DNA of 59,352 nt from a phage. Under the pieces are notes generated by a model. The model had not been told where the DNA came from, did no database searches, and saw only the letters and a program-made list of their open reading frames with translations. Below, in pieces: positions 3,869-43,619 of this stretch. Position 1 is the stretch's first letter. Each line of letters opens with the position of its first letter. The stretch lies in sequence record PZ564402.1; one strand, 5' to 3'. Made by a program: the position numbers and the translations under genes.

Positions 3869-3924
3869 CAACGGTTAACAGCACGTCGAACATACGCGAC
3901 GTGTATCAAACGGGGAAACTAAAA

Positions 3925-4251: not shown

Positions 4252-4264
4252 TTTCTACTAAAAA

Positions 4265-4293
4265 GTAAGGCCGGATTTCCCGGCCTTTTTTAT
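4265..4293. terminator. bidirectional rho-independent terminator (GGCCGG-ATTTCC-CGGCC flanked by A5 and T6)
   Basis: Perfect hairpin between convergent genes 3925-4251 (+) and 4299-6881 (-). Confidence 0.7.
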
Positions 4294-4298
4294 GTCTG

Positions 4299-9597: not shown

Positions 9598-10194
9598 ATG
9601 GCCGAGAAATTAGTCCCTGCGAAGAAAGTCAAGAATGGCGTGCTGTATAAATCTGGTCACATCAAGATTTCTAACGTACGTGCTTCTTACCCGCACCTCG
9701 ATAAGCCGTACGGCGGCGAAGACGGCGGCGAGCCGAAATACTCGCTGACACTTTTGATGCCGAAAGAAAGCCACGGCGAGATCGAGAAAATCATCCGCGA
9801 GCAGATCGAAGTCACCAAGAAGAACCACAAGACAGGCGCGCTTAAAGTGGCTCCGTCCATGTTGTTCATCAAAGACGGCGACACCGATTTCCCGGACAAA
9901 CCGGAATGCGAAGGGATGTGGGTTATCTCAGCGCGCGAAAGCAAACGCCCGGATGTGTATAACATCGAGCGCGAAGAGTTGACTACTTCTTCCGAAATTC
10001 TGGAAGAGATCTACGGTGGTTGTTGGGTGTCTGTCGTCATCCGTCCGTGGTCGCAGGAAAACAAATTCGGCAAACGCGTCAACGCCAACCTGATTTCCGT
10101 TCTCAAACGCAAAGACGACGAGCCGTTCGGTGAAGGTCGCGTTGACACGTCTGATGCGTGGGATGAAGACGAAGATTGGGAAGACGAAGTGTAA
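9598..10194 (+). CDS. ssDNA-binding protein, T7 gp2.5-like (198 aa)
   Basis: N-terminal ASYPHLDKPYGG...YSLTLLMP resembles gp2.5 YAYIAKPDYG...YKVDLTIP; acidic C-terminal tail DAWDEDEDWEDEV. Confidence 0.6.
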   Translation: MAEKLVPAKKVKNGVLYKSGHIKISNVRASYPHLDKPYGGEDGGEPKYSLTLLMPKESHGEIEKIIREQIEVTKKNHKTGALKVAPSMLFIKDGDTDFPDKPECEGMWVISARESKRPDVYNIEREELTTSSEILEEIYGGCWVSVVIRPWSQENKFGKRVNANLISVLKRKDDEPFGEGRVDTSDAWDEDEDWEDEV

Positions 10195-10220
10195 TTCACG
10201 CCCTCGGGCGGTAATTCAAG

Positions 10221-10244
10221 GCCCGCCGTGTGCGGGCTTTTTTC
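10221..10244 (+). terminator. rho-independent terminator (GCCCGC-CGTGT-GCGGGC + T6)
   Basis: Perfect 6-bp stem and T-tract right after SSB gene. Confidence 0.65.
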
Positions 10245-10260
10245 ATATAGGAGCGTTGAC

Positions 10261-12589: not shown

Positions 12590-14111
12590 AGCGCTCGCGT
12601 ATTGCCTGCGGACGGTTAAACTGAACCGCAGCGACATGCACGACTATCAGGACGAAGGCGTCCAGTTCATCAAAGACCATCCGTACTGCGGCATGTTCGT
12701 AGACCTCGGCTTGGGTAAGACTGTCATGACCGGGACGGCCATGCTAGACCTGATCGCGGACGGCGAAATCAACAAAGTCCTCGTCGTCGCGCCGAAGCGA
12801 GTGGCCCGTACCGGGTGGCCGACGGAATTCGACGAGTGGGGCCATCTGTGCTTCTACAAGATGTCGATTATCGCCGGAAACGCCAAAGAGCGCGCAGCGG
12901 CCGCGAGTAAGGACTGCCATTTTTACACGATCAGCGTCGATAACATCGCGTGGCTGTGCGAGCACTTCAAGACGAAATGGCCGTTCGACGCCGTGGTGCT
13001 GGACGAGTCGAGCATGTTCAAATCCCACACCTCGCAGCGCTTCAAACTGCTGCGCCGGGTGCGGAAGTACATCAAACGGATCGTCGAGTTGACGGCCACG
13101 CCTGCGGCCGAAGGGTACATGGGTATCTTCTCGCAAATTTACCTGCTGGACGAAGGCGAGCGCTTTGGCTCCACCATCGGCGGTTATCAGGACAACTACT
13201 TCACGCAGAACCGCTACAACTTCAAATGGAAACTTCGCCCCGGTGCGGAAGACGAGATTATTCGGAAGATTTCTGATATATGTTTAGTCATGAAAGCGGA
13301 AGACTACCTTGACATGCACGAACCGAATTTCGTTCCTGTCCCGGTCGAGTTAGACGGGGAGACGGCCGAGCGGTACCGCATGATGGAGGAAGAGAGCCTC
13401 GTCGAGATTATGCCGGACGATTTCGATGAACATCTGGATGACCCAATCGTGATCGAAGCGGAGCAGGCCGCGTCTTTGCAGTCGAAGCTATTGCAGATGT
13501 GCTCAGGCTTCATCTACGACACGAAAATCGTTGGCATAACGCAAGACGACAAGGTCATTAAGCAGAAGGACACGTACAGGCTGCACGACCTGAAATTCGA
13601 TGCACTGGAAGAACTGCTGGAAACCACGCTGGCCGATAAAAACGTGCTGATCGCCTATCACTTCAAGCCGACCCTCGAACGACTGAAAGAGCGGTTTAAA
13701 GATCTGGTGGTCATGGATGATGACGGTAAGTGCATCAAGAAGTGGAACGCCGGAAAGATTCGACTGCTGGCCGCGCACCCTCAGTCAGCGGGACACGGTT
13801 TAAACCTCCAGCATGGCGGCCACGTCATCGTCTACATCGACAATCCGTGGTCACTCGAACGCTTCCTGCAATTCAATGGCCGATTGCACCGTCAGGGGCA
13901 GAAGTACCCGGTTACGATCTACCAGTTCAAAGCCATGCTGCGAACACCGAACGGGCTTCTGGCCGAGACGGCGGACGACGTAGTCATACAGGCGCTGGTC
14001 GAAAAGGAAGACGTGCAGGACGCGTTCTTCGAACTGCTCGAACGTATCAAAGGGCGCATCAAACGCCGCAAGAAATCGAAAAATAAAGGGGTATGGGATG
14101 ACGAAGAGTAA
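12552..14111 (+). CDS. SNF2/SF2 family helicase (start uncertain: TTG 12552 or ATG 12636)
   Basis: Q-motif HDYQDEGV, Walker A GLGKT, DExx-like VVLDES, helicase C motifs; C-terminus VWDDEE. Confidence 0.75.
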   Translation: MQTLKTTLSPLSRALAYCLRTVKLNRSDMHDYQDEGVQFIKDHPYCGMFVDLGLGKTVMTGTAMLDLIADGEINKVLVVAPKRVARTGWPTEFDEWGHLCFYKMSIIAGNAKERAAAASKDCHFYTISVDNIAWLCEHFKTKWPFDAVVLDESSMFKSHTSQRFKLLRRVRKYIKRIVELTATPAAEGYMGIFSQIYLLDEGERFGSTIGGYQDNYFTQNRYNFKWKLRPGAEDEIIRKISDICLVMKAEDYLDMHEPNFVPVPVELDGETAERYRMMEEESLVEIMPDDFDEHLDDPIVIEAEQAASLQSKLLQMCSGFIYDTKIVGITQDDKVIKQKDTYRLHDLKFDALEELLETTLADKNVLIAYHFKPTLERLKERFKDLVVMDDDGKCIKKWNAGKIRLLAAHPQSAGHGLNLQHGGHVIVYIDNPWSLERFLQFNGRLHRQGQKYPVTIYQFKAMLRTPNGLLAETADDVVIQALVEKEDVQDAFFELLERIKGRIKRRKKSKNKGVWDDEE

Positions 14112-14667
14112 TGCGCCACTGGCAACCCGGAATCGCCGCTCTAACGCGCCGGACGCCGACACAGAAGCGATGATCTTTCAGGGCTGCAACATCACGCAAC
14201 TGGCAAAACTGTTCCGCATGGAGCGCCGGGACATCACGCCGAAAATCATGGATGTCCCGCCTATCGGCGAGCGTGGCGGGTACCCGATCTACGCGGTTCA
14301 CGAAGTGGCCCCGTACCTCGTTAAGCCGCTGTACGATGTCGAGACGTACCTGCGCCGCATGAATTTCAAGGATCTGCCGAAGGAGTTGTCGAAAGAGTTT
14401 TGGGCCGGGCAGCGTGCAAAGCAGGACTTCGACATCAAAGCTGGCAACCTGTGGGAAACAGAGAAGGTGATCGAGCACTTCGGCGAGGCGGTGAAGGTAC
14501 TGCGCATGTCGATGCTGCTCATTCCCGACACGCTGGCGCGTCAGGCCGGACTCAGCGAGCCGCAACGTCAGGTCATCACGTCATCCATTGACGCCATGCT
14601 GAACGACCTGTCGAGCGCGCTGATCGAGAAGTTCAACGGCGACGAGGTGGACGACGATGAAGTTTAA
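14098..14667 (+). CDS. terminase small subunit, Nu1-like winged-HTH (189 aa)
   Basis: NITQLAKLFRMERRDITPKIMDVPPIGERGGYPIYAVHEV resembles lambda Nu1 N-terminal DNA-binding domain; directly upstream of and overlapping TerL; C-terminus DDDEV. Confidence 0.55.
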   Translation: MTKSNAPLATRNRRSNAPDADTEAMIFQGCNITQLAKLFRMERRDITPKIMDVPPIGERGGYPIYAVHEVAPYLVKPLYDVETYLRRMNFKDLPKELSKEFWAGQRAKQDFDIKAGNLWETEKVIEHFGEAVKVLRMSMLLIPDTLARQAGLSEPQRQVITSSIDAMLNDLSSALIEKFNGDEVDDDEV

Positions 14668-16732
14668 CAGCATCGCGCAGATTATCAGTTCGGTGGCCGA
14701 GCAGTTACGGCCGCCAATGCGTATGACGGTGGCCGATGCGGCCGCCAAGTATCGCTACGTCAACCAACCCGGCGCATACGTCGGGGATTGGCTTAACTCG
14801 ACGACGCCGTACATGGTCGAGCCGATGAACATGATGAACAGCCGGGCATACGACAAGATGGCCTTTGTCGGCCCTGCGCAGTCCGGTAAAACCGATGCGC
14901 TGATCCTGAATAGCATTGTCTATTCAGTGAAAGTTGACCCGATGGATCTGATGGTCTACTGCCCGACGTCAACGGCCGCGCGCGACTTCTCGATGCGACG
15001 TGTAGACCGTCTTCACCGCCATAGCCCGAAGGTGGGCGAAATGCTGATGAAGAACCGCGACGCCGACAACAAATTCGACAAACACTACGTCACAGGCATC
15101 ATCCTGACGTTGAGTTATCCGTCAGTAACCGAACTGGCCGGGCGTCCCGTTGGCCGCATCATCATCACCGACTACGACCGTATTGACGACGACATCGGTG
15201 GCGACGGTAACGCCTTCGACCTCGCATCAAAACGTACGACGACCTTCGGGTCGTTTGCCATGTGTGCAGCCGAGTCATCACCATCGCGCCCGATTAAAGA
15301 CCCAAGCTGGATTAAGCGCACGCCCCACGAAGCCCCGCCGTGTGACGGGATTGTCGGCCTGTACAACCGAGGCGACCGCCGCCGCTGGAAATGGCCGTGT
15401 CCGCATTGCGACCAGTATTTCGAAGGTACCTTCCAGCTTTTGAAGTGGAACACGAAAGACGCCGATGGCAACCCTCTAACCAACCTCGAAAAGTCGGAGA
15501 CAGTGCGCATGGCCTGTCCACACTGCGGCTGCGAAATAGACCCGGTTGATAAGTATGAAATGAACCTGTGGGGGATGTGGGTGCCGGAAGGCTGTCATGT
15601 CAACGAGTTGGGCCAACTGGCCGGGGTACCGATGCGCTCGTCGTTCGCGTCCTTCTGGCTCCGCGGAACGGCGGCCGCATTCATCACATGGCAGAAACTG
15701 GTTCTGAACTACCTCGATGCGATGGATGACTACGAGCGTACGATGTCCGAAGAGTCCTTGAAGAAATTCTGGAACAACGACATGGGCGAACCGTACGTGC
15801 CGAAGGCGATCGAGACGGTACGCGTTCCGGAAGCGCTGAAAGCCCGCGCCGAGAAGTGGCCGGAACAGACGGTGCCGAAGAATGTGCGGTTCTTGGCGGC
15901 CACGGTGGACGTGCAGAAGCATAGCTTTGAAGTGTCGGTGCATGGCGTGGCCCCCGGCTACCCATTCGACACCTACCTGATCGACCGCTTCAACATCACG
16001 AAATCGCGCCGACTCGATGACGATGGCGACCCGAAAATCCTGCACCCGGGCGCGTACCTCGAAGATTGGGATCTCATTGAAACCGAAGTGATGAACAAGA
16101 CGTATCCGCTGTACGATAATTCTGGCCGTTCGCTGCCGATCAAGATGACCGCGTGCGACTCCGGTGGTGAAGCCGGGGTAACGGGCAACGCGTACGAATT
16201 CTTCCGGAAACTGCGGAAGGAAGGGAAAACCGGGCGCTTCTGTCTGGTGAAGGGCGACCCGAAAGCGAACAACCCGCGCACCCGCGTAGCGCTACCGGAC
16301 TCCAACCAGAAAGACAAGAAAGCCATCGCACGCGGCGACGTTCCGGTGCTGATGATTAACTCGAACGTGATGAAAGATAGCCTGAACGGCCGACTGGACG
16401 TCGTGGAGCCGGGCAAAGGCATGTACCACATCCCGAACTGGATGGGCGACGCGGTATTCGCCGAACTGTGTACGGAGACGCGTGACGAGAAAGGCTGGCA
16501 CAACCCATCCCACGCCCGAAACGAAACGTGGGACTTGGCGTATTATTTATTAGGTATTTGCGTCAGTGGCCGCGTGCTCGGGATTGAGCAGATAGATTGG
16601 GATAACCCGCCATCATGGGCGGCCGAGTGGGACGATAACAGCATGGTTATTTTACCGCAGAGCGATGAACCTATTGATGCACCGAAAGATACCGAATACA
16701 GTTTCGAGAAACTCGCAATGGCGTTAGCATAG
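14657..16732 (+). CDS. terminase large subunit (lambda gpA-like)
   Basis: Walker A GPAQSGKT, size 691 aa, position upstream of gpW-like and portal. Confidence 0.9.
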   Translation: MKFNSIAQIISSVAEQLRPPMRMTVADAAAKYRYVNQPGAYVGDWLNSTTPYMVEPMNMMNSRAYDKMAFVGPAQSGKTDALILNSIVYSVKVDPMDLMVYCPTSTAARDFSMRRVDRLHRHSPKVGEMLMKNRDADNKFDKHYVTGIILTLSYPSVTELAGRPVGRIIITDYDRIDDDIGGDGNAFDLASKRTTTFGSFAMCAAESSPSRPIKDPSWIKRTPHEAPPCDGIVGLYNRGDRRRWKWPCPHCDQYFEGTFQLLKWNTKDADGNPLTNLEKSETVRMACPHCGCEIDPVDKYEMNLWGMWVPEGCHVNELGQLAGVPMRSSFASFWLRGTAAAFITWQKLVLNYLDAMDDYERTMSEESLKKFWNNDMGEPYVPKAIETVRVPEALKARAEKWPEQTVPKNVRFLAATVDVQKHSFEVSVHGVAPGYPFDTYLIDRFNITKSRRLDDDGDPKILHPGAYLEDWDLIETEVMNKTYPLYDNSGRSLPIKMTACDSGGEAGVTGNAYEFFRKLRKEGKTGRFCLVKGDPKANNPRTRVALPDSNQKDKKAIARGDVPVLMINSNVMKDSLNGRLDVVEPGKGMYHIPNWMGDAVFAELCTETRDEKGWHNPSHARNETWDLAYYLLGICVSGRVLGIEQIDWDNPPSWAAEWDDNSMVILPQSDEPIDAPKDTEYSFEKLAMALA

Positions 16733-32357: not shown

Positions 32358-32596
32358 TGAGCAGACACGACGAGCCGCAGGATCAGCCGCGCATCTTTAT
32401 GCGCCATGCCCGGAAACTCGGGTATTGCAAAAACGGGTCGGAGCGCTTGGCCGAGCGCTTCGGTATCACCTTCGAACAATTCCTACGGGAAGGCTACCCG
32501 GTAGCGGAAGCCATGAAGTCCGCAAACCCGCTGCTGCGTAAAGCCGCAGCCGTGGCCCAACAAGAATGGGACGAGGCGCACGCACATGGGAAGTAA
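32357..32596 (+). CDS. hypothetical tail-region protein (79 aa)
   Basis: ORF coupled between flanking tail genes. Confidence 0.35.
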   Translation: MSRHDEPQDQPRIFMRHARKLGYCKNGSERLAERFGITFEQFLREGYPVAEAMKSANPLLRKAAAVAQQEWDEAHAHGK

Positions 32597-35500
32597 AGCC
32601 AAGAAGATTACGGTTGGGTACAAATACTACATGGGCCTGTTTATGGGCCTTTTCCGTGGCCCGGTGAATGAGATTGTCGAGATCCGCGTGGGCGACCGCA
32701 CCGCGTGGACAGGCTCAATCACTGGCAACACAACCATCCAGATCAACCGCGAAGACTTGTTCGGCGGCACGAAGGCGGAAGGGGGCATTGATGGCCCGCT
32801 CGAAGTTTATATGGGCGCGCCGACGCAGACCGTCAGCCAGAAGTTAAAGAACATGCTCGGCGGCCGCCAGCCGGAATTCCGTGGTGTCGTTACCGCGTAT
32901 TTCGACGGCCTGATCTGCGCCATGAACCCTTACCCGAAGCAGTGGAAATTCAAGGCCCGCCGCTCTACGGCCGGGTGGACAGGAGGCGTCTGGTATCCGG
33001 AAAAATGTCTGGTCAAGATGCAGGGGTACGACGGTCAGGGCAATCAGCACGAAATCCATGCCATGAACCCTGCGCACATCCTGTATGAATGCCAGTCGAA
33101 CTACGAGTGGGGCCGTGGCCTGTCACGCACGCTTATCGACGACACGACGTTCCGCCTCGCGGCCGACACCCTGTTTAACGAGAACTTCGGCCTTTGCATC
33201 CGATGGAACCGTCAGGACACGCTCGAATCGTTCATGCAGCTTATCCTCGACCACATCGGCGGCGCGATGTACGTCAGCAAAGTGACGGGCAAACTGTCCC
33301 TGCGGTTGATCCGGAAGGACTACGACTTCGACACGCTGCCGATCTTCGACACGGATTCCGGGCTGCTGTCCATTCAGGAAGCGACCAACGCGTCTCCGGC
33401 CAATCTGGTTAACGAAGTAGTCGTGACTTACCACAACCCGATTATGGACGAAGACCAGCAGGTGCGTAGCCACAACCTCGCGCAGATCCAGAATCAGGGC
33501 TGTCTGAACAGCAACACGATTGAATACCTCGGCATCCCTACCGGGAAACTGGCGATGCAGGTGGCACAGCGTGACTTGCGCGCCGCGTCTACCAACGTCC
33601 GCCGTTTCACCGTGATCTGTGACCGCCGGGCATGGAACGTGCAGCCGGGCGACGTGCTGAAAGTGCGTGACCCGAAACAGCGCGGCCTGACCGAAGTTGT
33701 TATCCGCGTCGGTACCGTTGAAGATGGCACGCTGCCGGACGGCAAGATCAAGATTGTCGCGCTGCAAGACCAGTTCGCCTTCCAGTTAAACACGTTCAAC
33801 CAAGTCGAGCCGCCATCCGGATACGAGCCTGACCTGACTCCCGCGATTGCCCGCCGTATCGTGTACGAAATGCCGTACGTGGATCTGGTGCAGCAGCTAC
33901 CGGACGGCGAACTGAACGCCGTTGGCCCGAACGATGCGTTCATCAACTCGCAGGCCGAGAAGCCGACTGACATGTCCGCCGCGTATGACATGGGTATCAT
34001 GGCCGAAGGTGAATCGGGCTTCGACATCCGTGGCAACGGTGACTTCGGTGCGTTCGGATCGCTGGCCGCCGACATCGACTACCTGTCAACGCAAATCATC
34101 CTGTCCGAAATGACCGACATGTGGGACGACGTTCAGCCGGGCTTCGTGGCGCGCATCGCCAAGCCTGTTCTTGACGGCCAACGCACGCAGATGGAAATCG
34201 CCGAAGAGTTTGTCCGCATCGACGCCATCAATGGCAACGTGATTACCGTGGCGCGCGGTGTACTCGATACCATCCCATTCCGCCACCAGAAAAGCGAAAT
34301 GCTTTGGGTGACGACGTACGACGGCGGTACCGACTGGCAGAAATACGCGGGCAACGAGTCCATCGACATCAAGATTCTGCCGTGGACATTGGGCGGTGGC
34401 CGCTTCCCGATTGAAGATGCGCCGATTGATCATCTGGACATGGACTTCCGCCAGATCCGCCCATACCCGCCGGGCAACGTGCAGCACTATCTCGCTTCGA
34501 CGTCAACGCTGCAACGCTGGTATGTCCCGTCCGCGCTTACCTACACGGCCAACGCCGGGGAAACGCCTGACACGTACACCCTGACTTGGGCGCACCGCGA
34601 CCGTATCCTGCAAGCGGATAAGCCTGTGCCGCACACCGACGGCGACATCGGGCCAGAACCGGGTACCACGTACACCATCCGCGTCTACAATCAGGAAGGG
34701 ACGTTGGTTCGCACCGAGTCCGGTATCAACGGCACGTCGTGGAATTGGCCGTACGCAACCGCAGCGGCGGACATGAATGTCGAAGCCAGCCTGTTCGACC
34801 CGGTGCTCGCGACGCTCCGCCTGACGTCTGTCCGCAGCGGCCGCGAAAGTTGGGAATACTACGAAATGAAGGTCAGCGTTTATAAGAAGCCTCCGCAGTT
34901 CGTGTATAACGCCAGCCTGATGCAGTTCGCCGCGCAGCCGTACAACGCCGCCAGTGATCCTAACCCGCCAACGCCACCGATGGACGGCCCGTATGTTTCG
35001 TCCCTGATGCAGTTTGCCGCGCAGCCAGATGGTAGCGATGACTTCGGCCCGGCGGAAAGCATGAATGGCCCGAACGTGGCGCTACTGCCGCACCAAGTCA
35101 CGCAGACGTCGTCAATCATTACGCCGCTCGATACGCTGCTGTATGAAACGCCGTACATCCAGTTATCCCGCGACGGCCGTGACCTAAATACATCGAAAGT
35201 CAGCGCGTACGTGGCGCGTTCGTCCGACCGTACCGTCGATTCGTACACCCTGTTCACCAAGCACGAAACGGACGCGAACTACACGTCGGCCGGGACTCAG
35301 CCGTGGACACCGTGGGGCATGTCAACCGTCGGCCTCGGCTTCTTCACGGACGAAGTGACCATCGACCCAACGTCCGATAAAGACGGCGTTCCGGTAGCTC
35401 CCGCGAAGGTTGGTGATCTGCTGCTTATCGATCAGGAATTGGTGTCCATTACCGCCATCAACGGCCGCACGTATAAGATTGGTCGTGGCGTAGCAGATAC

Positions 35501-36476
35501 CATCCCGGCGCAGCACTACAGCAGCCGTCCTGTCTGGCTGATCTCCGTGGGCTTCGGCTACTCCGACATGGCATTCGGCGACAACGAAAAAGCGATGGTC
35601 ATCATCCGCCCGGATACCTACGGCACCGACATTCCGTTGAGCAAGCTGTACCCGCTCCAATTGCAGATGCAGTACCGTCCGAAACGTCCATACCCGCCGG
35701 GCCTGATGATGATTGGCGGCCAACCGTTCTTCAATACCGCGAGCGGACTGGCTGACGATTTCAACCCGTACGACAACCTGAAAGCGAAGGACGTGGTATG
35801 CACATACGCACACCGCAACCGTGTATCGCAATCCACCACGGCGCGCGACCACTTCGCCGTCGGCATCACCCCGGAACCGGGCGTGAAGTACCGCGTGCGC
35901 ATTGGTTATGCGTACTGGTCGCAGTCAGGTAGCGGCTTCTCGCTGCTGTCTCAGTTCGAAACGGAAGACGCTGGCTTCATTATGCGTGCCGCCGACCTCG
36001 AACGTTGGGGCCGTCAGGCGGGCTATGCGCAGGACGCTGGTGGCTATTCCACGTTAAACGTGACCGTCAACGCGATTCGTGATGGAATGCTGAACTGGCA
36101 GGGATATACGATGACCGTGCGCGTGCCGTCCTTCCCCCTTCCTCCGGGACAGAAACCGGGTGGTGGCGATGGGCCGTGGAACCCGCCGGGCGGTGGCAAT
36201 ACTGGCGGTACTACTCCGCCGACGGAGCCGCCGGATCGTCCAGACCCGAGCGAGCCGGGTACCACTGACCCATCCGAGCCGACGAAGCCGGACGAGCCGG
36301 AAGAACCGCAGCCGCCAGTCGATCCGGAAGACCCGGATACTGACCCGCCGGAACCGCCGGAACCGCCCGTTGACCCGACCAACGTACCGGGCTGGTCATT
36401 GAGTTGGGATCACGGTTGGGCGATGACACTGCCAGATTTCCGATATGTTCCACCAGCAGACGAGGAACCTGAATAA
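32586..36476 (+). CDS. tail tip / host specificity protein (lambda gpJ-like), 1296 aa
   Basis: N-terminus KITVGYKYYMGLF and overall size typical of gpJ family; C-terminal Pro/Glu/Asp-rich low-complexity segment. Confidence 0.8.
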   Translation: MGSKAKKITVGYKYYMGLFMGLFRGPVNEIVEIRVGDRTAWTGSITGNTTIQINREDLFGGTKAEGGIDGPLEVYMGAPTQTVSQKLKNMLGGRQPEFRGVVTAYFDGLICAMNPYPKQWKFKARRSTAGWTGGVWYPEKCLVKMQGYDGQGNQHEIHAMNPAHILYECQSNYEWGRGLSRTLIDDTTFRLAADTLFNENFGLCIRWNRQDTLESFMQLILDHIGGAMYVSKVTGKLSLRLIRKDYDFDTLPIFDTDSGLLSIQEATNASPANLVNEVVVTYHNPIMDEDQQVRSHNLAQIQNQGCLNSNTIEYLGIPTGKLAMQVAQRDLRAASTNVRRFTVICDRRAWNVQPGDVLKVRDPKQRGLTEVVIRVGTVEDGTLPDGKIKIVALQDQFAFQLNTFNQVEPPSGYEPDLTPAIARRIVYEMPYVDLVQQLPDGELNAVGPNDAFINSQAEKPTDMSAAYDMGIMAEGESGFDIRGNGDFGAFGSLAADIDYLSTQIILSEMTDMWDDVQPGFVARIAKPVLDGQRTQMEIAEEFVRIDAINGNVITVARGVLDTIPFRHQKSEMLWVTTYDGGTDWQKYAGNESIDIKILPWTLGGGRFPIEDAPIDHLDMDFRQIRPYPPGNVQHYLASTSTLQRWYVPSALTYTANAGETPDTYTLTWAHRDRILQADKPVPHTDGDIGPEPGTTYTIRVYNQEGTLVRTESGINGTSWNWPYATAAADMNVEASLFDPVLATLRLTSVRSGRESWEYYEMKVSVYKKPPQFVYNASLMQFAAQPYNAASDPNPPTPPMDGPYVSSLMQFAAQPDGSDDFGPAESMNGPNVALLPHQVTQTSSIITPLDTLLYETPYIQLSRDGRDLNTSKVSAYVARSSDRTVDSYTLFTKHETDANYTSAGTQPWTPWGMSTVGLGFFTDEVTIDPTSDKDGVPVAPAKVGDLLLIDQELVSITAINGRTYKIGRGVADTIPAQHYSSRPVWLISVGFGYSDMAFGDNEKAMVIIRPDTYGTDIPLSKLYPLQLQMQYRPKRPYPPGLMMIGGQPFFNTASGLADDFNPYDNLKAKDVVCTYAHRNRVSQSTTARDHFAVGITPEPGVKYRVRIGYAYWSQSGSGFSLLSQFETEDAGFIMRAADLERWGRQAGYAQDAGGYSTLNVTVNAIRDGMLNWQGYTMTVRVPSFPLPPGQKPGGGDGPWNPPGGGNTGGTTPPTEPPDRPDPSEPGTTDPSEPTKPDEPEEPQPPVDPEDPDTDPPEPPEPPVDPTNVPGWSLSWDHGWAMTLPDFRYVPPADEEPE

Positions 36477-37216
36477 TGCCGAAAAAGACAGCCCCGAATC
36501 AGGGGCTACCCTACGGGTGGATTCGCGGGGAAGACTATTGGGGCGGCCCGATGTCCGACTCGCAGATCTTCCTCGACACCACGCTATTCCTGACACTGGA
36601 ATCGCTGACCTTCTCCGCTCCGCCGCCGGACGTGGTGGACGGGGCCACCTACGTCGTCGCGGCTAACCCGACGGGTGCGTGGGCCGGACATGAAGGCGAT
36701 GTGGCCGTGTACGTGGAAAAGGTCTGGACGTTTTACAAGCCTCGCTACGGATGGCGCGCTCGCGTCCGTTCGTACGAGAAATTCTTGTGGTTTAACGGCA
36801 CGACGTGGCTTGACGAGGCGACCGGGGAAGACCCGGTCAACCCTGACCCCGACCCAAGCGTTAAGCCGAAATGGTACGACATCGGGGTGACGGTGTCGGA
36901 CAGCATGTACGCGAATGAACCTGTCGTGCATCTGCCGATCCTTGACCCGATGTACCTGCCTGCCAATATGGTCGGCTCACAGTTTGACATGGCCGACGGC
37001 GCAAGCCCGGCCTATTACCAATTCCGCGTGCAGCGCAACGGCCAGAACGTCGCAACGATGACCGTGGAAATCGGAAACTTCAACGCATCGTTTACCACTG
37101 CCGGGGGCAACCCGATTTCCTTCGCCGCCGGGGATCGCATGACGGTTCGCGCGCAGCAGGAAGCCGTCGCCGGGATGAAAAACTTTGGCTTCGTAATTCG
37201 CATGGGACTGGTCTAA
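36476..37216 (+). CDS. hypothetical tail protein (246 aa)
   Basis: ORF coupled to J-like stop. Confidence 0.45.
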   Translation: MPKKTAPNQGLPYGWIRGEDYWGGPMSDSQIFLDTTLFLTLESLTFSAPPPDVVDGATYVVAANPTGAWAGHEGDVAVYVEKVWTFYKPRYGWRARVRSYEKFLWFNGTTWLDEATGEDPVNPDPDPSVKPKWYDIGVTVSDSMYANEPVVHLPILDPMYLPANMVGSQFDMADGASPAYYQFRVQRNGQNVATMTVEIGNFNASFTTAGGNPISFAAGDRMTVRAQQEAVAGMKNFGFVIRMGLV

Positions 37217-37225: not shown

Positions 37226-38233
37226 ATGGCAAGTTATTTTGATGGATATGAGCAGTTCCGTTCGACGGACACGTCTAACCCGGGAACCTTTATGCGGCTC
37301 GCCGGGTACACGGTTCGAGGCGCGATTTCGGCGGGTCTTGGCCGCCTCCCGGCGAGCATCGGACTGTACACGCTGAACAGCGCCTACGAGCGCGACTGGA
37401 CGTGGGGTGGCGACACCCTCACCATCGGCTTTGCGTGCAAGCAGCAGGAGCGTGGCGCGCTATTTGGGCTAAAGGTCGGTGACGCCACTGGCCGCGATGT
37501 TCCGCATGTCGTTGTCTACACTGACCCGGTGTCGGCGCTCGTCACCATCCAGACCGGGCCAGACCAGTCGGAAGTCGGGTATGTCACGCCGATCCCGACA
37601 CGCTGGTACTACTACGAAGTCGTGATGAACCGCGCCACGAAGGTTATCGAGGTGTTCGTTAACGGGAAGTCCGACGTGGCGTTCACGCTGCCGGACGTCC
37701 TCGCGGCGTCGGCCGTTGTGCGCATGGTCTTCAACCCGTTCGACATGCTCCCGGCGTTCCCTGCCGATGCGAACTACAAGGAAGACACGAAAGTATTCGA
37801 CGACATGTATGCGCAGGACGGCGGCCGTTTAGGGGCCATCCAGATTAGCGGACGACTGCCGGACGGCGACCGTGACACCGAATGGGGTGTGGCCGGGCCT
37901 AACCCGACGGCCGCACATAACCAGATGGTCGGCCGACTGCCGCCAGACATGGCAAATCGGTTTATCTATACTGGCACGAATGACCGCCATGACTCGTTTA
38001 TCTCGTCGGCGAAGTTACCGGATAACGGGGCTATTCTGGCGCAGGGACTGATCGCATTAGTCCGGAAGGCCACGGCCGACCCGGTGTCGATTATCGCGAA
38101 CATTGACAGCCACACTGTTACCCTGTCGAATATCGGCCGTAATTGGGAATATCGTTACGCGCAATTCACCACAAGCGGTTATGATCGAGCCGCCATTGAA
38201 GCCGCCGAATTCGGTGTGCGTTCAGTAATTTAA
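37226..38233 (+). CDS. tail-associated paralog 1 (335 aa)
   Basis: Shares N-terminal F-DGY-EQ and RWYYYEVVMNRATKVIEVFVNG motif with three following genes. Confidence 0.6.
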   Translation: MASYFDGYEQFRSTDTSNPGTFMRLAGYTVRGAISAGLGRLPASIGLYTLNSAYERDWTWGGDTLTIGFACKQQERGALFGLKVGDATGRDVPHVVVYTDPVSALVTIQTGPDQSEVGYVTPIPTRWYYYEVVMNRATKVIEVFVNGKSDVAFTLPDVLAASAVVRMVFNPFDMLPAFPADANYKEDTKVFDDMYAQDGGRLGAIQISGRLPDGDRDTEWGVAGPNPTAAHNQMVGRLPPDMANRFIYTGTNDRHDSFISSAKLPDNGAILAQGLIALVRKATADPVSIIANIDSHTVTLSNIGRNWEYRYAQFTTSGYDRAAIEAAEFGVRSVI

Positions 38234-38243
38234 AGGGGTTACT

Positions 38244-39206
38244 ATGCTGAAATTTATGGACGGTTTTGACCAGCTACGCGGCTGGTCTGACGTTACTGAT
38301 GGGCTGACCAAATGCGGGTACACCGTGTCTGGCACGCCCACACTGGAGGAAGGGCGTGTGGCTACGCAGATGGCGGTATCGCTGCCGGACACGGCCAGCC
38401 TGAAACGCGTGTTCACCTCCGGGGCCACGAAGGTCGTGTTTGGCTTTGCCTTCCGCGCTATCGGGAAACGCCACACCCTCGTCACCATCAAAGATGTTGC
38501 GACGGTTACGTGGGACGAGACTAACGGGAAGATCACGGCCGCTGGCGGTACCGGAACAGCGGTGCTGCTGCTGGACTTGTGGTACTACATCGAAGTGGTT
38601 CTGGACAAGACTACCAGCACGATCGAGGTGTACGTGAACAACGGGCCGGACATCACCGCGCCATCGCCGTCGAGCGCTAACCCGGTCACTAACTATGAAG
38701 TCACATGGGCGGGCGTTGCCACGGCGCAGTACCTTCTCGACGACATCCAGTTCATCGACAACCAGCCGGGTAAGTATACCGGGCGCATCGGGCCTATCCA
38801 GATCACCAGCCGCTTGCCGATGGTGGACGTGGACAAAGAATGGTCGCCGTCATCCGGCAATGATCACTACCCGCTCGTCTACAATCAGCCGCCCGTCGAA
38901 GGGTCGTACATCCAGTCGAACACGTCCGGCGCGACCGACACGTTTCTATCAAACACCGTCATCCCTGATACGCAAAACATTCTGGCCGTCGGCATGACCG
39001 TGCTGAACAAAAAGTCAGACGTGGACAACCGTCAGTTAGGCATGGTCATCGGCCAAAAAGGCGACACGCAAAAAGAAGTTATCGACGCGGCGCTATCCAC
39101 GACTGAAAAGTATAGTTATGCTGTGTTCGAGACGAACGCGGCCGGGCAAGACTGGAATGACGAACGACTCAGCGAAGCGCCGTTCGGCGTCATCGTAAGA
39201 CCATAA
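38244..39206 (+). CDS. tail-associated paralog 2 (320 aa)
   Basis: MLKFMDGFDQ and LWYYIEVVLDKTTSTIEVYVNN shared motifs. Confidence 0.6.
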   Translation: MLKFMDGFDQLRGWSDVTDGLTKCGYTVSGTPTLEEGRVATQMAVSLPDTASLKRVFTSGATKVVFGFAFRAIGKRHTLVTIKDVATVTWDETNGKITAAGGTGTAVLLLDLWYYIEVVLDKTTSTIEVYVNNGPDITAPSPSSANPVTNYEVTWAGVATAQYLLDDIQFIDNQPGKYTGRIGPIQITSRLPMVDVDKEWSPSSGNDHYPLVYNQPPVEGSYIQSNTSGATDTFLSNTVIPDTQNILAVGMTVLNKKSDVDNRQLGMVIGQKGDTQKEVIDAALSTTEKYSYAVFETNAAGQDWNDERLSEAPFGVIVRP

Positions 39207-39219
39207 GGAGCATACCGAA

Positions 39220-40239
39220 ATGTTTAAATTCTGTGACGGGTACGACCACTATGCCGAAATCGGCGCGAAGGGTACGGCCCTACAAAGTTATCTGGAAGCC
39301 GCCGGGTACGTGGTGCGTAATGCCAGCGATTCCACGTTTTCCGTTGTCGAGGGCCGCCGGACAGGTGCGCGTGCGCTGAAATTCACCGTGGCCGCCAGTT
39401 CATCTGTCAACGCCTCACTGTCATGGGGATTCACCACGACGGCCTCGTCAGTCGTCTTCGGATTTGCCATGAAAGCCGGGCTGTCCCGTATGCGTATCGC
39501 GCGCATCGAGAACATCGTGGACATCGAGTGGGACACCACGACCGGGAAAATCCGCGTAGGCGAGCAGTTAGGCGTCAACCCGCTGATCCTGAACGCATGG
39601 TATTACTTTGAAATCGAGATCGATAAGACGGCCAATACCGTCAAGATCTACGCGAATAACGAATTGCAGTTAACCGTTACGCCATCGAGTGCGCCGACCA
39701 CCACGTACACAATCGTTTGGGGGCAGACGGGTACCGCGCCGAATGCGGGCGAACAGACACTGGACGATTTCTACGTTATCGATGGTTCTGGTAGCCGCAA
39801 CAACGCGCGCCTGACTCCGGTCGAAGTGACCAGTCGTATGCCAACGGCCGACGTTTCTACGCAGTGGGAAGTCGTGAACGCCTCATCTGCCACGCCGCAC
39901 TATCAGATCGTGTCACAGCTTTCCCCGGGCGGCGAGTCGAAGCCATACCTGCAATCGAACACCGCAGGAGCGACCGATATGTACCGTTCGAACGTGACGC
40001 TGCCGAACAATAACCAGATCTTCGCCGTATCTGTTATCGCGTACGCCCGTAAAGGCGACCTTGATGACCGTAAACTCGGTCTGGTAGTCAACACGGAAGG
40101 CGGAACGCCGACTGAAATTCAGGTGCCGCTGACCGAGTCGTACAAGTATTATCAGGCATCGTTCGAGCAAGCGCCGGGCGGAAGTGACTGGAACCAGAAC
40201 AACGTCGAATCTTTGCAATTCGGCATCATCACTCGATAA
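39220..40239 (+). CDS. tail-associated paralog 3 (339 aa)
   Basis: MFKFCDGYDH and AWYYFEIEIDKTANTVKIYANN shared motifs. Confidence 0.6.
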   Translation: MFKFCDGYDHYAEIGAKGTALQSYLEAAGYVVRNASDSTFSVVEGRRTGARALKFTVAASSSVNASLSWGFTTTASSVVFGFAMKAGLSRMRIARIENIVDIEWDTTTGKIRVGEQLGVNPLILNAWYYFEIEIDKTANTVKIYANNELQLTVTPSSAPTTTYTIVWGQTGTAPNAGEQTLDDFYVIDGSGSRNNARLTPVEVTSRMPTADVSTQWEVVNASSATPHYQIVSQLSPGGESKPYLQSNTAGATDMYRSNVTLPNNNQIFAVSVIAYARKGDLDDRKLGLVVNTEGGTPTEIQVPLTESYKYYQASFEQAPGGSDWNQNNVESLQFGIITR

Positions 40240-40253
40240 GGGAGGGATTCACT

Positions 40254-41480
40254 ATGCCTGTAGTTTGGCACTGCGGTTTTAATGGGATCATCAATAACAC
40301 GATGAGTCAGGGTCAGTCGAACCTGTTTATCAACACAAACGATACCGTGGCGGGGGGCCATGCCCTCTCCAGCGACAATTTAATCAACAACGTCTTCGGG
40401 CGCGGCAACGGCCTCCAAAATGGCGGCTTTCTCCCTCTGATCACTTACTACGGATGTAAATGGACGACAAACGGGGCGTACGGGTCGTCTTATGTTTTTG
40501 GTCGTGTTAAGCCGTCTTTCTTTGATAACTCCGTGCCATGCCTAAGCACCGAGCTATACCAACCTGCTACCACTTCCGACTGGTGGGTGGGATGGCAGTT
40601 CCGTATCGATTTGTGCTGGCCTTCGGCGGAACGCCTGACGACGTCGTGGCGCATGGGCTTCCGTATTGGCCGAGCAACACACCCCACACGCGATATTGGT
40701 TATCAAGTCTATATCTGCCCGGCAGGTATTAACGGTGCAGAAGGCCGAGACTTATATCGTATCCCGATCACTGCGGGTCAGGACGAGAAGTATATGGAGG
40801 TGGAATGGTTGGCGGATACCAAGACCCTTAACATCTATCTGAACGACGAACTTGTCTCGACCCGCACCAACTACACCGCCTACGATATGTCGTACGGCCT
40901 TATTTTGGTGTGCGAACATTTCGTTGGCTCTACCACTAGCTCCACACCGTTCTTCGGTTTTGAACTGCGGGACATGTATGTCCAGAAAATTGTTTCAGAT
41001 GCAGATCAACGCCTCGGGTCTTCGACAAAAGTATATGCGTTCAATCCCGTTAATGACGATGTTGTACAGTTCTCTCGGCCAGACGCATATTCGTCAAACG
41101 CCGCCGTCGCGGTAACGCCGATCTCTTCCGGGGGTATCACCCCGACGCCGTCGCAATCTACTGCAATTCTCGGGGCGGACGTGGTCGGACAGCAAGACCT
41201 GTATAACATTGACATTTCCAAAGTCAGCACACGTCTGGCGTCGATTGAAGCGGTTAACGTCCGGACGATGGCCCGAAATCCGTTGCTTGGAAATAGACAA
41301 TCTGCCGCGATCGCCAAGTCCGGGGCCGCTCAAACCCAAAGCGAGAACACATCGACGCTCGAACAAGGCGGCCTGTGGCGTTTCAACACGTTGCAGATGG
41401 TGTCTGACCCGGCGGATGGCTCGCGCTGGAACCTTACAAAACTGGCCGGGCTTAAAGTCGGTACCAAATTCGTCGCGTAA
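40254..41480 (+). CDS. tail-associated paralog 4, divergent (408 aa)
   Basis: YMEVEWLADTKTLNIYLNDE resembles shared beta-strand motif; same orientation and spacing. Confidence 0.5.
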   Translation: MPVVWHCGFNGIINNTMSQGQSNLFINTNDTVAGGHALSSDNLINNVFGRGNGLQNGGFLPLITYYGCKWTTNGAYGSSYVFGRVKPSFFDNSVPCLSTELYQPATTSDWWVGWQFRIDLCWPSAERLTTSWRMGFRIGRATHPTRDIGYQVYICPAGINGAEGRDLYRIPITAGQDEKYMEVEWLADTKTLNIYLNDELVSTRTNYTAYDMSYGLILVCEHFVGSTTSSTPFFGFELRDMYVQKIVSDADQRLGSSTKVYAFNPVNDDVVQFSRPDAYSSNAAVAVTPISSGGITPTPSQSTAILGADVVGQQDLYNIDISKVSTRLASIEAVNVRTMARNPLLGNRQSAAIAKSGAAQTQSENTSTLEQGGLWRFNTLQMVSDPADGSRWNLTKLAGLKVGTKFVA

Positions 41481-41489: not shown

Positions 41490-43619
41490 GTGGCGGATGA
41501 AGACGTAGGTATCAGCGCGGCCAAACTGGTCGGCGAAGCCTTGCAGTGGAATGGCGAGAAGCCCAAACTCACATACCTGTCTAAGTGTGTGGGTGAAGCG
41601 TTAGCCATTTCCGCATTGAACATGGACGCGGCGAAAAACTTCGGGGAGGTTTTGCAGTGGGACGGTAAATTGCCGTCCATCTTCCGCGCGGCCGAATTGG
41701 TCGGCGAAGTGCTGGCGATTCAGAAGATGGAGATCCGCGCATCGTCAATGATTTGCGAAGCGCTGGTCAAAGAGCCGCAATTTATGGCGGCCGAAATGAT
41801 CTGCGAGGCTATCGGTCAGGCGGCCACGGAACGGCCACCGCTTTACGCAGATGCGGTTTATCAGTACGTCACGCAGCACGATGTCGTACCGCCGTTGTCA
41901 GATGTCATTTCGACGGAACGCCTGTACTCGCTGTGGAATTACGCCATTGTCCAGCGGCCGATCGATGCCCCGATTTCCTACAACATCGTGAAGCAGGCGG
42001 TGACGCTGTCCGTTCTGGCGTCGCCTATCGTGACTATTTCGTACGACAAGGTGAAGACCGCGTGGTCGTATGCCGTGGTGTCCGCGACGCTCGGTGACTT
42101 CCCGCTGCCGGATGAAATGTGGTCGAAGATCAGCACGAAACAGGCGTGGAATCTGGTATTGCAGTCGATCGACATCCCGTACGTCCCGACGTCTGGTGTG
42201 TTCGTTCGCCATGAATCGACGCTGGTGGTTCAGGCCCGTCCGCTGCCGATGTACACGACGCCTGCGTCCGTGAAGTCGAACGTAGTTCTGGCCGCGCAGA
42301 AGCGCCCGGTTGAACGACTCCCGCGCTCAAGGACTCGCGTGGCGCAGGCATTATCGCAGGCCGTTACCGCGTTGCCGATCCCGATGCCCCGGTCAAACGT
42401 GTTCGCCGCGCAGACGCTGTCACAGGCGGTCATCCCGGCGGACTTCGTTGACCCGACTGTCGGCGTCGAGCACGCGGCCGCAGTGACGTCGTACGCTGTT
42501 TGCGAGTATCAGGTGTCGCTTCCTATCAGTTACACTCGTGCGAAGTCCCTGACGCCGCTGGTGCTGCAATTTAGCGATAACCAACGAGCCATCCCGCTGT
42601 CCACGATGCGCACCAAACATGTTTCGTCTCAGTTCTTGGTCAAGTCTGACTTGCTCCCGGTGCTGTCTCGGACGCGCGTTAAACAGGTGCGCACGTACGC
42701 GGTGCAGGAGTCGGCCTACACGCCGCCGATTAACCTGCTGGTGTGGTCACGCGCCGATGCCGTTCGTACGTCGGTGGTGCAGCAGGCCACGGACTACCCT
42801 GACCCGGGCATCCCTACAACGTCGGCTATCGTCGGCGCGGCCACGGCGTATCACGTCATGAAAGCGCTGGACTACGAAGACCCGAACGACATGTGGGAAG
42901 CGAGCAAGGTTCAGATGGTGCCGCAGTTCTTAGAGAAGGTGCTGAAAGCCCAACCGCTGCGGCTCCCGATCTCGTACGCACCGTTGGCGCAATTCGTTGA
43001 ACTGGTCACGCGGTATCAGTACATGCCGCCGCCGGGCGAAGTGGCCGAGTCCGGTATCCACGTTCGTCAGGTGATGCAGCCAGTGGCGTTCCGTGCGACC
43101 TATCCTGACCCGACTGTCCCGGCGTCCTTCCTGACTGTCAATCAGGTGCTGGAGCACATCGCGATCCCGGCCGACTATCCGGATGTCCATCTGCCGACGT
43201 CGGACGCGATTGTAAATCAGGTATTAGAACACGTTGCGCAGATTGACGATTTCCCTGATCCCGGTACCATGTTCCGGCCGCTTATTGTCAGCCAGATCAT
43301 CCAGCAGGCGGCACAGGACGCGTCTTACCCGGATTGGAGCACACTGCATAAACCCATCGCGGTGCAGCAGGTGATTCAGCATGTATCAATGACAGCGGAG
43401 TACCCTGACAAGGACATCCCGCAATCATTTGCAGAAGTGTCTCAAGTTTTACAACACTATGCCGATATAGCTAATTACCCAGACAAAGATGCTCCCCAAT
43501 CCACGCTACGAGTCCGTCAGGTACTTGAGCAGGTAATGATGCGCGACAAGTCGATGTACGAAATGCCGCAGCCACCACGGAAACATCGGGTGCAAATCAC
43601 TTGCCGCTTTGTGTACTGA
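41490..43619 (+). CDS. highly repetitive fibre-like protein (GTG start, 709 aa)
   Basis: AAGGGGG RBS; about 25-30 degenerate 22-24-aa repeats (e.g. YPDxxxPxSxxxVxQVLxH); last structural gene before lysis cassette. Confidence 0.6.
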   Translation: MADEDVGISAAKLVGEALQWNGEKPKLTYLSKCVGEALAISALNMDAAKNFGEVLQWDGKLPSIFRAAELVGEVLAIQKMEIRASSMICEALVKEPQFMAAEMICEAIGQAATERPPLYADAVYQYVTQHDVVPPLSDVISTERLYSLWNYAIVQRPIDAPISYNIVKQAVTLSVLASPIVTISYDKVKTAWSYAVVSATLGDFPLPDEMWSKISTKQAWNLVLQSIDIPYVPTSGVFVRHESTLVVQARPLPMYTTPASVKSNVVLAAQKRPVERLPRSRTRVAQALSQAVTALPIPMPRSNVFAAQTLSQAVIPADFVDPTVGVEHAAAVTSYAVCEYQVSLPISYTRAKSLTPLVLQFSDNQRAIPLSTMRTKHVSSQFLVKSDLLPVLSRTRVKQVRTYAVQESAYTPPINLLVWSRADAVRTSVVQQATDYPDPGIPTTSAIVGAATAYHVMKALDYEDPNDMWEASKVQMVPQFLEKVLKAQPLRLPISYAPLAQFVELVTRYQYMPPPGEVAESGIHVRQVMQPVAFRATYPDPTVPASFLTVNQVLEHIAIPADYPDVHLPTSDAIVNQVLEHVAQIDDFPDPGTMFRPLIVSQIIQQAAQDASYPDWSTLHKPIAVQQVIQHVSMTAEYPDKDIPQSFAEVSQVLQHYADIANYPDKDAPQSTLRVRQVLEQVMMRDKSMYEMPQPPRKHRVQITCRFVY

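Follow-up and report, generated by a model that had tools for sequence, protein, structure and literature searches.

The window, the 59,352 nucleotides of sequence record PZ564402.1, is the complete genome of a Chi-like phage (Chivirus), and four consecutive genes in its tail region, gA to gD (products A to D), form one paralogous family, with D as a distant member and diverged homologue. These genes are orthologues of Chi gp32-gp35 (YSD1_31-34) and are labelled "hypothetical" in almost all records. Their products are probably low-copy, lectin-like parts of a flexible distal fibre and host-recognition assembly to which gp31 and gp36 also belong. [quoted passage not shown]
Feature	Position (nt)	Strand	Product or residues	Orthologue or other name	Remark
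J-like gene	32586-36476	+	1296 aa	Chi gp30 / YSD1_29 / 'BH2P'	tail-tip hub protein
J-like C-terminal linker	36135-36377		80 residues, aa 1184-1263		Pro/Gly/Asp/Glu-rich; followed by a 33-residue tail
DUF2793 gene (gU, gUp)	36476-37216	+	246 aa	Chi gp31	annotated 'tail fiber protein'
gA	37226-38233	+	335 aa	Chi gp32 / YSD1_31	paralogue 1, most diverged of the conserved trio
gB	38244-39206	+	320 aa	Chi gp33 / YSD1_32	paralogue 2
gC	39220-40239	+	339 aa	Chi gp34 / YSD1_33	paralogue 3, slowest evolving
gC N-terminal domain	39220-39804		~aa 1-195		ConA-like jelly roll (predicted)
gC C-terminal domain	39808-40236		~aa 197-339		beta domain (predicted)
gD	40254-41480	+	408 aa	Chi gp35 / YSD1_34	paralogue 4, fast-evolving 'D slot'
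gD N-terminal domain	40254-40988		aa 1-~245		enlarged, hypervariable jelly roll (predicted)
gD C-terminal domain	40989-41477		aa ~246-408		conserved
gE	41490-43619	+	709 aa	Chi gp36 / YSD1_35	repeat protein
gE repeats	43035-43559		aa 516-690		exact 25-residue repeats ending (Y/F)PD

Paralogy of the array genes

The tandem array of four genes recognized in a sequence-only reading of this DNA is present exactly as described: four same-strand ORFs separated by gaps of 9-14 nt, each with an AAGGGG/AAGGAG-type Shine-Dalgarno site 5' of its start codon. That reading placed the array downstream of the J-like gene, which is correct as to position, but one gene, encoding the DUF2793 protein, intervenes. 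It also proposed paralogy, and formal pairwise alignment agrees. By BLASTP, A, B and C are significantly similar over their full length (A-B, 28% identity, E = 3e-25; A-C, 23%, E = 4e-19; B-C, 36%, E = 3e-64), and C aligns with D at 23% identity across 226 aa (E = 1e-3). No significant pairwise BLASTP similarity was found for A-D or B-D. In a shuffle control, the scores of these two pairs were at chance level, and the C-D score of 36.2 bits was equalled in 0/100 shuffles (mean 18.3, maximum 29.6).

Profiles and structure connect D to the other three. A, B and C belong to PHROG 2448 along their full length (E = 1e-121 to 1e-138; gA, 3e-121; gB, 7.5e-136), and the same PHROG matches gD weakly (E = 3.9e-8, D180-405). 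A balanced family HMM matches D at E = 4e-9 and does not match J, U (the DUF2793 protein) or E, and hhalign of the C-family against the D-family profile gives E = 2.6e-5 at 75% probability over 201 columns. In Foldseek comparisons, the gC model matches the D-slot proteins of JS26, JC01 and Stilesk (E ~1e-13, TM 0.59-0.70) and, more weakly, Enc34 D (E = 4.6e-8, TM 0.37). D is counted as a family member because of its profile matches (E = 4e-8 and 4e-9) and this structural similarity. The literal motifs thought to be common to all four genes hold strictly in three: WYYxE(V/I) is found in A, B and C, and B and C match T(I/V)(E/K)(V/I)(F/Y)(V/A)N exactly where A reads VIEVFVN; the D versions (WHCGFN, KYMEV and TLNIYLN) are degenerate, so the motif claim is restricted to A, B and C. 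The A-D protein family comprises ~5,700 clusters at 50% identity (E <= 1e-10). PHROG 2448 carries no annotation, and membership is therefore silent on function.

Predicted fold and possible glycan binding

The beta-sandwich module suggested from the letters is borne out by structure prediction, in which the motifs sit on a strand pair of a concanavalin-A-like (ConA-like, LamG-type) jelly roll with the curved two-sheet fold of that superfamily. AlphaFold models of C and D (gD: pLDDT 84.8, pTM 0.87) have a common two-domain layout, an N-terminal beta sandwich followed by a C-terminal beta domain, and an alignment of 22 homologues defines the hypervariable and conserved halves of gD. The ConA-like lectin/glucanase superfamily takes in sialidase lectin domains (PDB 2w68, 5mqs, 8hls), the HCN domain of BoNT/NTNHA, legume lectins and PL7 and GH16 enzymes. 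The array proteins have only 7-17% identity to the superfamily. Curated ConA-like models (for example, Laminin_G_3 and Toxin_R_bind_N) gave no Pfam match at E <= 1 and no NCBIfam match, and NTNHA gave a weak profile match (E = 0.014). The C-terminal domain of the array proteins matched no known fold.

The ConA-like jelly roll is typical of carbohydrate-binding modules (CBMs), and where phage tails and toxins contain domains of this fold, binding is their usual role. We infer that the array proteins may bind glycans, although the predicted fold by itself does not prove sugar binding. One indirect hint of a glycan link is that metagenomic relatives carry BNR/Asp-box beta-propeller inserts in B-position and D-slot proteins. 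At the B position the insert is ~275 aa long and contains BNR Asp-box motifs, of which the ~620-aa proteins have one to three copies (mostly two); a 712-aa D-slot protein has two. The Asp-box S-x-D-x-G-x-T-W is absent from the window proteins. A second hint is that the Chi-like phages STm101 and STm118 form no plaques on LPS-deficient Salmonella, which could be an indirect effect, as deep-rough mutants are known to lose flagellation.

The array proteins might instead be virion-borne lyases or glycanases of the ConA-like clan, stripping LPS or capsule from the cell surface. This is improbable: regex searches found GH16 motifs (ExDxxE/ExDxE) and PL7 motifs (RxExR, Q(I/V)H, YFKAG) in 0/4 proteins, no enzyme family matched the array proteins in Pfam, NCBIfam or PDB sequences, and lectin-type structural neighbours score just as well.

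Virion presence and place in the tail

In relatives, homologues of the array proteins belong to the virion and the tail module, in line with their initial description as tail-region proteins. Published proteomics of CsCl-purified JS26 virions recovered all five paralogues together with the homologues of U and E, with coverage of 66-93%: gp50-gp54 (1182-2108 PSMs, 66-93% coverage), among them gp53 (B homologue) and gp54 (A homologue, 93%), as well as gp55 (DUF2793 homologue) and gp49 (E homologue, 88%). The automated label of gp49 is 'putative capsid protein'. AchV4_0025 and AchV4_0026 were detected in virions by LC-MS/MS; AchV4 0027 and 0028, from the same region, are annotated only as hypothetical proteins and not as virion structural proteins. 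From these homologues in two relatives, the array products are likely to be low-copy virion proteins. A role as non-structural fibre assembly chaperones, which a fibre-adjacent position recalling some tail-fibre assembly genes might suggest, is largely refuted by the virion proteomics, because purified particles of two phages contain the homologues in abundance. Chaperones would also be expected to be smaller and less conserved, and a set of five different ones has no precedent, leaving this role scarcely credible.

Abundance and gene order also bear on location. PSMs per residue in JS26 are 5-6 for A-C and ~3 for D1/D2, compared with 2.2-2.7 for J, DTP and BH1P and 37 for the tube protein. 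The sequence-only reading raised tail decoration; a decorating position along the tube is unlikely because these counts (3-6 per residue) are near those of tail-tip proteins (2-3) and far below that of the tube protein (37). Decoration anywhere outside the tip or fibre (tail tube, neck or head) draws on that suggestion and on the capsid label of gp49, and is highly improbable given counts ~10x below the tube protein and near the three-copy tip proteins, genes that come after the J and fibre-anchor genes, and a sequence search that found no such chain in published structures of the capsid, neck and tube of Chi and YSD1. Searches of PDB sequences with U, B, D, E or the A1 profile (which includes A and C) found no match; J corresponds to 8VJH, and none of gp31-gp36 is present in the cryo-EM structure of the tip.

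The J-like protein matches PDB 8VJH_A over its full length (3020 bits) and Pfam Phage-tail_3, and ends in the linker and tail given in Table 1. The DUF2793 protein (PF10983, E = 3e-22, residues 32-111) probably anchors the fibre cassette to the tail tip. Relatives without the array have the DUF2793 domain as the N-terminal part of their tail fibre. In BcepNazgul it is fused, opening a tail fibre ORF of 1270 aa; in PIN1 it precedes a separate fibre, and a 260-aa 'tail fiber protein' starts with the DUF2793 N-terminal domain alone and is followed by a 939-aa fibre. The array always lies between the DUF2793 fibre-anchor gene and gp36, the 25-residue-repeat protein (gE, matching PHROG 7226). gB is found in 164 phage records, with three places per genome by tblastn, and gE (160 records) and full-length gUp (153) have the same taxon profile. 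'The tail fibre' of Chi is gp30 (YSD1_29) in some papers and gp31 in others, and the fibre has been described as 'kinked'. As cited by others, the Chi tip is built of the distal tail protein, two hub proteins and an internal tripod protein, and reportedly has no extended fibre. Gene order, the logic of the DUF2793 anchor and absence from the solved Chi structures together suggest a fibre or tip location for the array products; it is not obvious how globular proteins of 35-45 kDa would be accommodated in a fibre that is thin and 220 nm long.

In our preferred explanation, the DUF2793 anchor (gp31), gp32-gp35 and gp36 would form an assembly hanging from the C-terminus of the J-like hub in Chi-type flagellotropic phages. 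Each array protein would combine an N-terminal ConA-like jelly roll with a C-terminal beta domain, the better-conserved half, probably for assembly. A, B and C would be ancient, non-interchangeable and slowly evolving subunits, serving as scaffold or as binders of a conserved ligand such as LPS core, and D would be a rapidly diverging, horizontally exchanged specificity subunit with its jelly roll as the variable host-facing surface.

Age, divergence and host range

The duplication is ancient: in six genera A, B and C fall into distinct orthologous clades with their order kept. Array copy number among relatives is 3 to 5. Duplication and diversification, as originally proposed, is upheld as paralogy, but a recent array is rejected because of these separate, ordered clades and the slow evolution of A-C. 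Within Chivirus, mean amino-acid identity is 0.96-0.98 for A-C and 0.81 for D; dN is 0.143 for D versus 0.009-0.023 for A-C (~6-16x higher), dS is 1.36 versus ~0.2, and dN/dS is 0.04-0.09 for A-C and ~0.1 for D. GC3 is 0.61 in D, 0.69-0.74 in A-C and 0.67-0.76 in other tail genes. The divergence of D looks like old alleles exchanged by recombination, rather than demonstrated positive selection. Between Chi and YSD1, U, A, B and C have no differences, D has three, all in the N domain, and gE (gp36) has 27 substitutions and is the most divergent tail protein; variation within the array region is thus confined to D and the neighbouring gene E. The host ranges of Chi and YSD1 differ in the literature, and the earlier idea of broadened host range is disfavoured for A-C because these proteins are identical in the two phages. 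D is a good candidate for a host-range determinant, and from this correlative evidence we infer a possible role for it in host specificity.

The same data allow an architectural reading, in which A, B and C (with D) are a hetero-oligomeric adaptor or serial segments of a single long fibre, with T4 gp34-gp37 or the paralogues gp6/gp7 as parallels; the jelly roll would serve as a structural unit and not for ligand binding, and host recognition would fall to gp36, the J protein or both. Six genera strictly keep three distinct paralogues, no more and no fewer, in one order, which favours it, as do strong purifying selection, Chi/YSD1 identity, the similar spectral counts of A, B and C, the 'kinked' fibre and the divergence of gp36. 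It leaves the hypervariable jelly roll of D and the BNR-propeller insertions in relatives without explanation and sits poorly with the usual binding role of ConA-like domains in phage tails and toxins, and we regard it as rather unlikely on its own, although it overlaps the lectin-like assembly preferred here instead of excluding it. A joint reading, held at best tentatively and with slightly less confidence than the architectural one, takes the 'curly' single fibre of Chi as a serially assembled gp31-gp36 organelle and not one protein: the DUF2793 anchor would dock onto the J hub at its flexible, proline-rich C-terminus; A, B and C would be a pseudo-symmetric hetero-oligomeric adaptor from the three-fold tip to one asymmetric fibre; D would be an exchangeable, lectin-like subunit that confers specificity at the cell-surface step; and gp36, with its 25-residue repeats, would be the filament gripping the flagellum.

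Three known systems offer comparisons. Tandem paralogous receptor-binding proteins include the four tailspikes of Vi01/CBA120-like phages and the dual tailspikes of SP6/K1-5. As in the Chi array, the tail module ends in a row of related genes, one or more of which differ strongly between close relatives, and variable tailspike clusters have been described in the literature. Tailspikes have a conserved N-terminal anchor and a variable enzymatic C-terminal beta-helix, and every paralogue varies; the Chi array, by contrast, has a predicted jelly-roll fold, its conserved half is C-terminal, and three of its four members hardly vary and persist as the same trio from genus to genus. Siphophage tail-tip carbohydrate-binding modules include BppA-type lactococcal baseplate modules and 'evolved' Dit with inserted CBMs. 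These share with the Chi array a lectin-like beta-sandwich at the distal tail (the location suggested for Chi) and extra binding domains inserted in loops (compare the BNR inserts of L018), but the Chi proteins are free-standing two-domain proteins and not Dit/Tal insertions, have no sequence relationship to these modules, and belong to a flagellotropic phage of a Gram-negative host. The T4 long tail fibre (gp34-gp35-gp36-gp37) is serially assembled, and some of its proteins have homologous segments. It is a possible analogy for the multi-gene gp31-gp36 cassette, for which serial assembly is hypothetical; T4 fibre proteins are elongated beta-structured trimers, whereas the Chi array proteins are predicted globular jelly rolls.

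Chi, a Salmonella phage, has been the model flagellotropic phage since the 1960s. This analysis assigns a predicted fold to a large uncharacterised phage family without a Pfam model and bears on two unsettled questions, the composition of the Chi fibre and the basis of serovar-level host range. It offers a candidate set of five to six co-inherited virion proteins, four with a predicted lectin-like fold, of which gp35 is the one hypervariable member and gp36 the repeat protein that holds most of the Chi versus YSD1 differences, so that host-range engineering and localisation work can now target specific genes.

The paralogous array and its predicted fold

More than 90 Chi-like phages (TS13, iEPS5, Utah and others; Chivirus, Casjensviridae) match the 4.3-kb array region at 94–97% identity, and the region's four genes, A to D, are labelled 'hypothetical protein' in all records listed by the region search and in nearly all records examined later. 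The four ORFs were confirmed at the positions proposed from sequence alone, with gaps of 9–14 nt and a Shine-Dalgarno site on each. Gene correspondence was set by mapping onto the Chi and YSD1 records and runs from the J-like tail-tip hub gene (J), through a DUF2793 gene (U) and the array, to a repeat-protein gene (E), after which the lysis genes follow. Spurious deposited names for array-region genes ('u-spanin', 'holin', 'histone-lysine N-methyltransferase' and 'VEGF receptor') occur in OL699877.1, PQ471667.1, KR296689.1 and ON809762.1, and B is named 'carbohydrate-binding protein' in one record. Chi-like tail genes, some at 83–97% identity, also occur in short records labelled as Staphylococcus, Listeria or Enterococcus phages (OR850062.1, OR849445.1, OR844950.1 and others), which are most likely mislabelled or contaminated assemblies.

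Features of the array region and its relatives, with mean amino-acid identity across ten Chivirus genomes and spectral counts (PSMs) with coverage of homologues in JS26 virions (PMC8754663, supplementary Table S6)
Feature	Sequence	Coordinates	Chi / YSD1 gene	Mean identity	JS26 homologue
J-like gene	Window	32586-36476	CHI_30 / YSD1_29	0.97	
J linker (aa 1184-1263)	Window	36135-36377			
U (DUF2793)	Window	36476-37216	CHI_31 / YSD1_30	0.98	gp55, 483 PSMs
A-D	Window	37226-41480	CHI_32-35 / YSD1_31-34		
A-C, compared by identity matrix	Window	37226-40239			
A	Window			0.96	gp54, 1654 PSMs, 93%
B	Window			0.96	gp53, 1677 PSMs, 77%
C	Window			0.98	gp52, 2108 PSMs, 86%
D	Window			0.81	gp51 and gp50 (two D-slot proteins), 1214 and 1182 PSMs
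E (709 aa)	Window	41490-43619	CHI_36 / YSD1_35	0.94	gp49, 1241 PSMs
E repeat block	Window	43035-43559			
J-like gene, two ORFs	Enc34	3360-7236			
Insert-bearing paralogues	Ga0495644_0000034	10001-11875 and 12911-15049			

Pairwise alignment upheld the proposed paralogy: A, B and C align over their full length (A–B, E = 3e-25; A–C, E = 4e-19; B–C, E = 3e-64), and each belongs to PHROG 2448 over its full length. D is far more distant; among its pairs only C–D is significant (E = 1e-3; 36 bits, where shuffled sequences reach 30 at most), and its place in the family comes from profiles (PHROG 2448, E = 4e-8; hhalign, E = 2.6e-5; balanced family HMM, E = 4e-9). The balanced HMM was required, as one built from a C-biased alignment that includes A and C failed to detect D; the balanced model never matched J, U or E. 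The literal motifs attributed to all four genes by the sequence-only reading are present in A to C, with only degenerate versions in D. Pfam and NCBIfam scans of A to D gave no match, and the family is without a model in either. Searched with a profile, a set of 1.84 billion cluster representatives yielded 11,418 proteins at E ≤ 1e-3, of which 5,700 pass E ≤ 1e-10; the top 150 are mostly 300–450 aa and match across the full profile.

The suggestion of a beta-sandwich module was borne out by AlphaFold2 models. C (46-sequence alignment; pLDDT 94.6, pTM 0.91) is predicted to form two all-beta domains, residues ~1–195 and ~197–339, and D (pLDDT 84.8, pTM 0.87) has the same layout with a larger first domain. 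The WYYxE...YxN motif is the typical strand pair of the jelly-roll fold, and the C-biased profile weakly matches the jelly-roll region of NTNHA. Structural-neighbour lists for the whole models are dominated by jelly-roll matches, leaving the fold of the second domain without an assignment, and sialidase lectin domains are among the top neighbours. The same two-domain fold recurs, often more than once per phage, among BFVD models of unrelated phages (VpV262, Roseovarius phage 1, Sphingomonas Kharn and Achromobacter Motura). Residues conserved across the family are G7, F/Y8, G81, G118, E131, N/D146, D183, R197, P208, D211, P236, D253 and G335 (C numbering). An enzymatic role for A to D was rejected because none of them carries GH16 or PL7 catalytic motifs.

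An old trio and a variable fourth slot

The comparison covered seven Casjensviridae genera (Chivirus, Enchivirus, Redjacvirus, Jacunavirus, Dunedinvirus, Lavrentievavirus and Gediminasvirus), all with one gene order: J, DUF2793, A, B and C, then one or two additional diverged paralogues, the repeat protein and the lysis genes. Only three family members are present in the Achromobacter phage AchV4. The Enc34 annotation divides the J-like gene between ORF30 and ORF31, which may reflect a frameshift, a sequencing error or a true split. In a neighbour-joining tree, A, B and C form separate clades, each containing six genera; the trio is therefore non-redundant and goes back to ancient duplications. 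The D-slot proteins, encoded after C in the array, form several deep lineages. The array is thus an old, fixed trio of conserved paralogues plus a fast-evolving fourth slot.

Among ten Chivirus genomes, dN is 0.143 in D versus 0.009–0.023 in A to C, dS is 1.36 versus ~0.2 in neighbouring genes, and GC3 is lowest in D (0.61 versus 0.67–0.76). Substitutions in D cluster at residues 1–240 and 281–320. Gene trees of A, B and C are mutually discordant, and their identity matrices (the window against L001, YSD1, Chi and L010-L015) group the genomes differently; for example, the window clusters with Utah, BSPM4 and SPN19 by B, and with Chi, YSD1 and ER24 by A. This discordance, taken with the divergence, dS and GC3 of D, indicates gene-by-gene recombination inside the cassette and points to D having been drawn from an older allele pool. 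We do not claim positive selection on D: dN/dS is ~0.1, dS is saturated, and old alleles with recombination fit better. Chi and YSD1, which are reported to have different host ranges, have identical U, A, B and C proteins, whereas J has 6 differences, D has 3 (each of them within the jelly roll) and E has 27.

Virion abundance and ligand hints

Proteomics of two relatives shows that homologues of the array products are virion proteins. Homologues of A to E and U are present in CsCl-purified virions of JS26, a flagellum-dependent Serratia phage, and the first two family members were detected by LC-MS/MS in AchV4. In JS26, PSMs per residue are 5–6 for A to C, ~3 for D and ~2 for U and E, compared with 2.2–2.7 for J, the distal tail protein and the hub protein and 37 for the tube protein. 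These spectral counts, although rough, argue for a few copies per virion and not for a decoration along the tube, so the earlier idea of tail decoration is rejected in that form. A chaperone role is rejected on the same abundance.

A 65-kb Chi-like metagenomic phage (JGI contig Ga0495644_0000034) encodes BNR/Asp-box beta-propeller-like inserts in two paralogues. Its 624-aa B-position protein has a ~275-residue insert in a jelly-roll loop, with Asp-box (SxDxGxTW) motifs and PSII_BNR/Sortilin-type Pfam signals, and its 712-aa D-slot protein has a similar insert in the C-terminal domain. Bacterial sialidases have two kinds of accessory part, BNR propellers and ConA-like lectin domains. In this metagenomic phage the J-like region is divided among three ORFs, and two of these duplicate one part of J. 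Two Chi-like phages that are 95% identical to the array region form no plaques on LPS-deficient Salmonella, a phenotype that may be indirect.

The cassette and its probable place in the distal fibre

J matches PDB 8VJH chain A across its full length. The Chi tail tip is deposited, yet PDB sequence searches with U, B, D and E, and with the C-biased profile, gave nothing meaningful. According to a later paper, the Chi tip is built from the distal tail protein, two hub proteins and a tripod protein inside it, and lacks an extended fibre or spike. At its C-terminus J has a linker of 80 residues (29 Pro, 11 Gly, 10 Asp and 9 Glu) and then a 33-residue tail (PTNVPGWSLSWDHGWAMTLPDFRYVPPADEEPE), which may serve to dock the protein that comes next.

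In relatives that lack the array, the DUF2793 N-domain of U is the N-terminus of a tail fibre: in BcepNazgul it is fused into a 1270-aa fibre, and in PIN1, a non-flagellotropic Klebsiella phage, it starts a 260-aa protein that precedes a 939-aa fibre. B, E and full-length U co-occur in the same ~155–165 phage records; the J N-terminal domain is found in 787. The C-terminal part of U and A to E therefore act as one co-inherited cassette, joined via DUF2793, which is most simply read as the flexible distal fibre and recognition complex that averaging leaves unresolved. The location is one we infer; the A to D products, with gp31 (U) and gp36 (E), most likely form this complex, and would serve as the distal fibre and host-recognition apparatus of Chi-type phages.

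The literature is divided on the tail-fibre gene. YSD1_29, by GenBank numbering the 1296-aa J-like hub, is the immunogold-labelled fibre of Dunstan 2019, as that work is cited elsewhere; CHI_31, the 246-aa DUF2793 protein, is a putative fibre according to PMC10399903; gp36 is neither. E carries seven 25-residue repeats in exact phase (...V-x-Q-V-L-x-H...(Y/F)PD), the last of them without the final YPD, with degenerate copies upstream of the block, and is the tail protein with the most divergence between Chi and YSD1. gp36 is a strong candidate for the flagellum-binding filament.

A literature search by gene name (CHI_32-36 and YSD1_35) returned unrelated papers only, and the A to E genes go unmentioned in the genome notes for Chi and Utah, in the comparative paper by Moreno Switt and in a 2025 resistance preprint. 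The literature searched yielded no description of the array's paralogy, its fold or its hypervariable member. We consider the finding of moderate importance. These are known genes of a well-studied phage, and the result gives a concrete starting point for answering what the Chi fibre consists of, a question of long standing.
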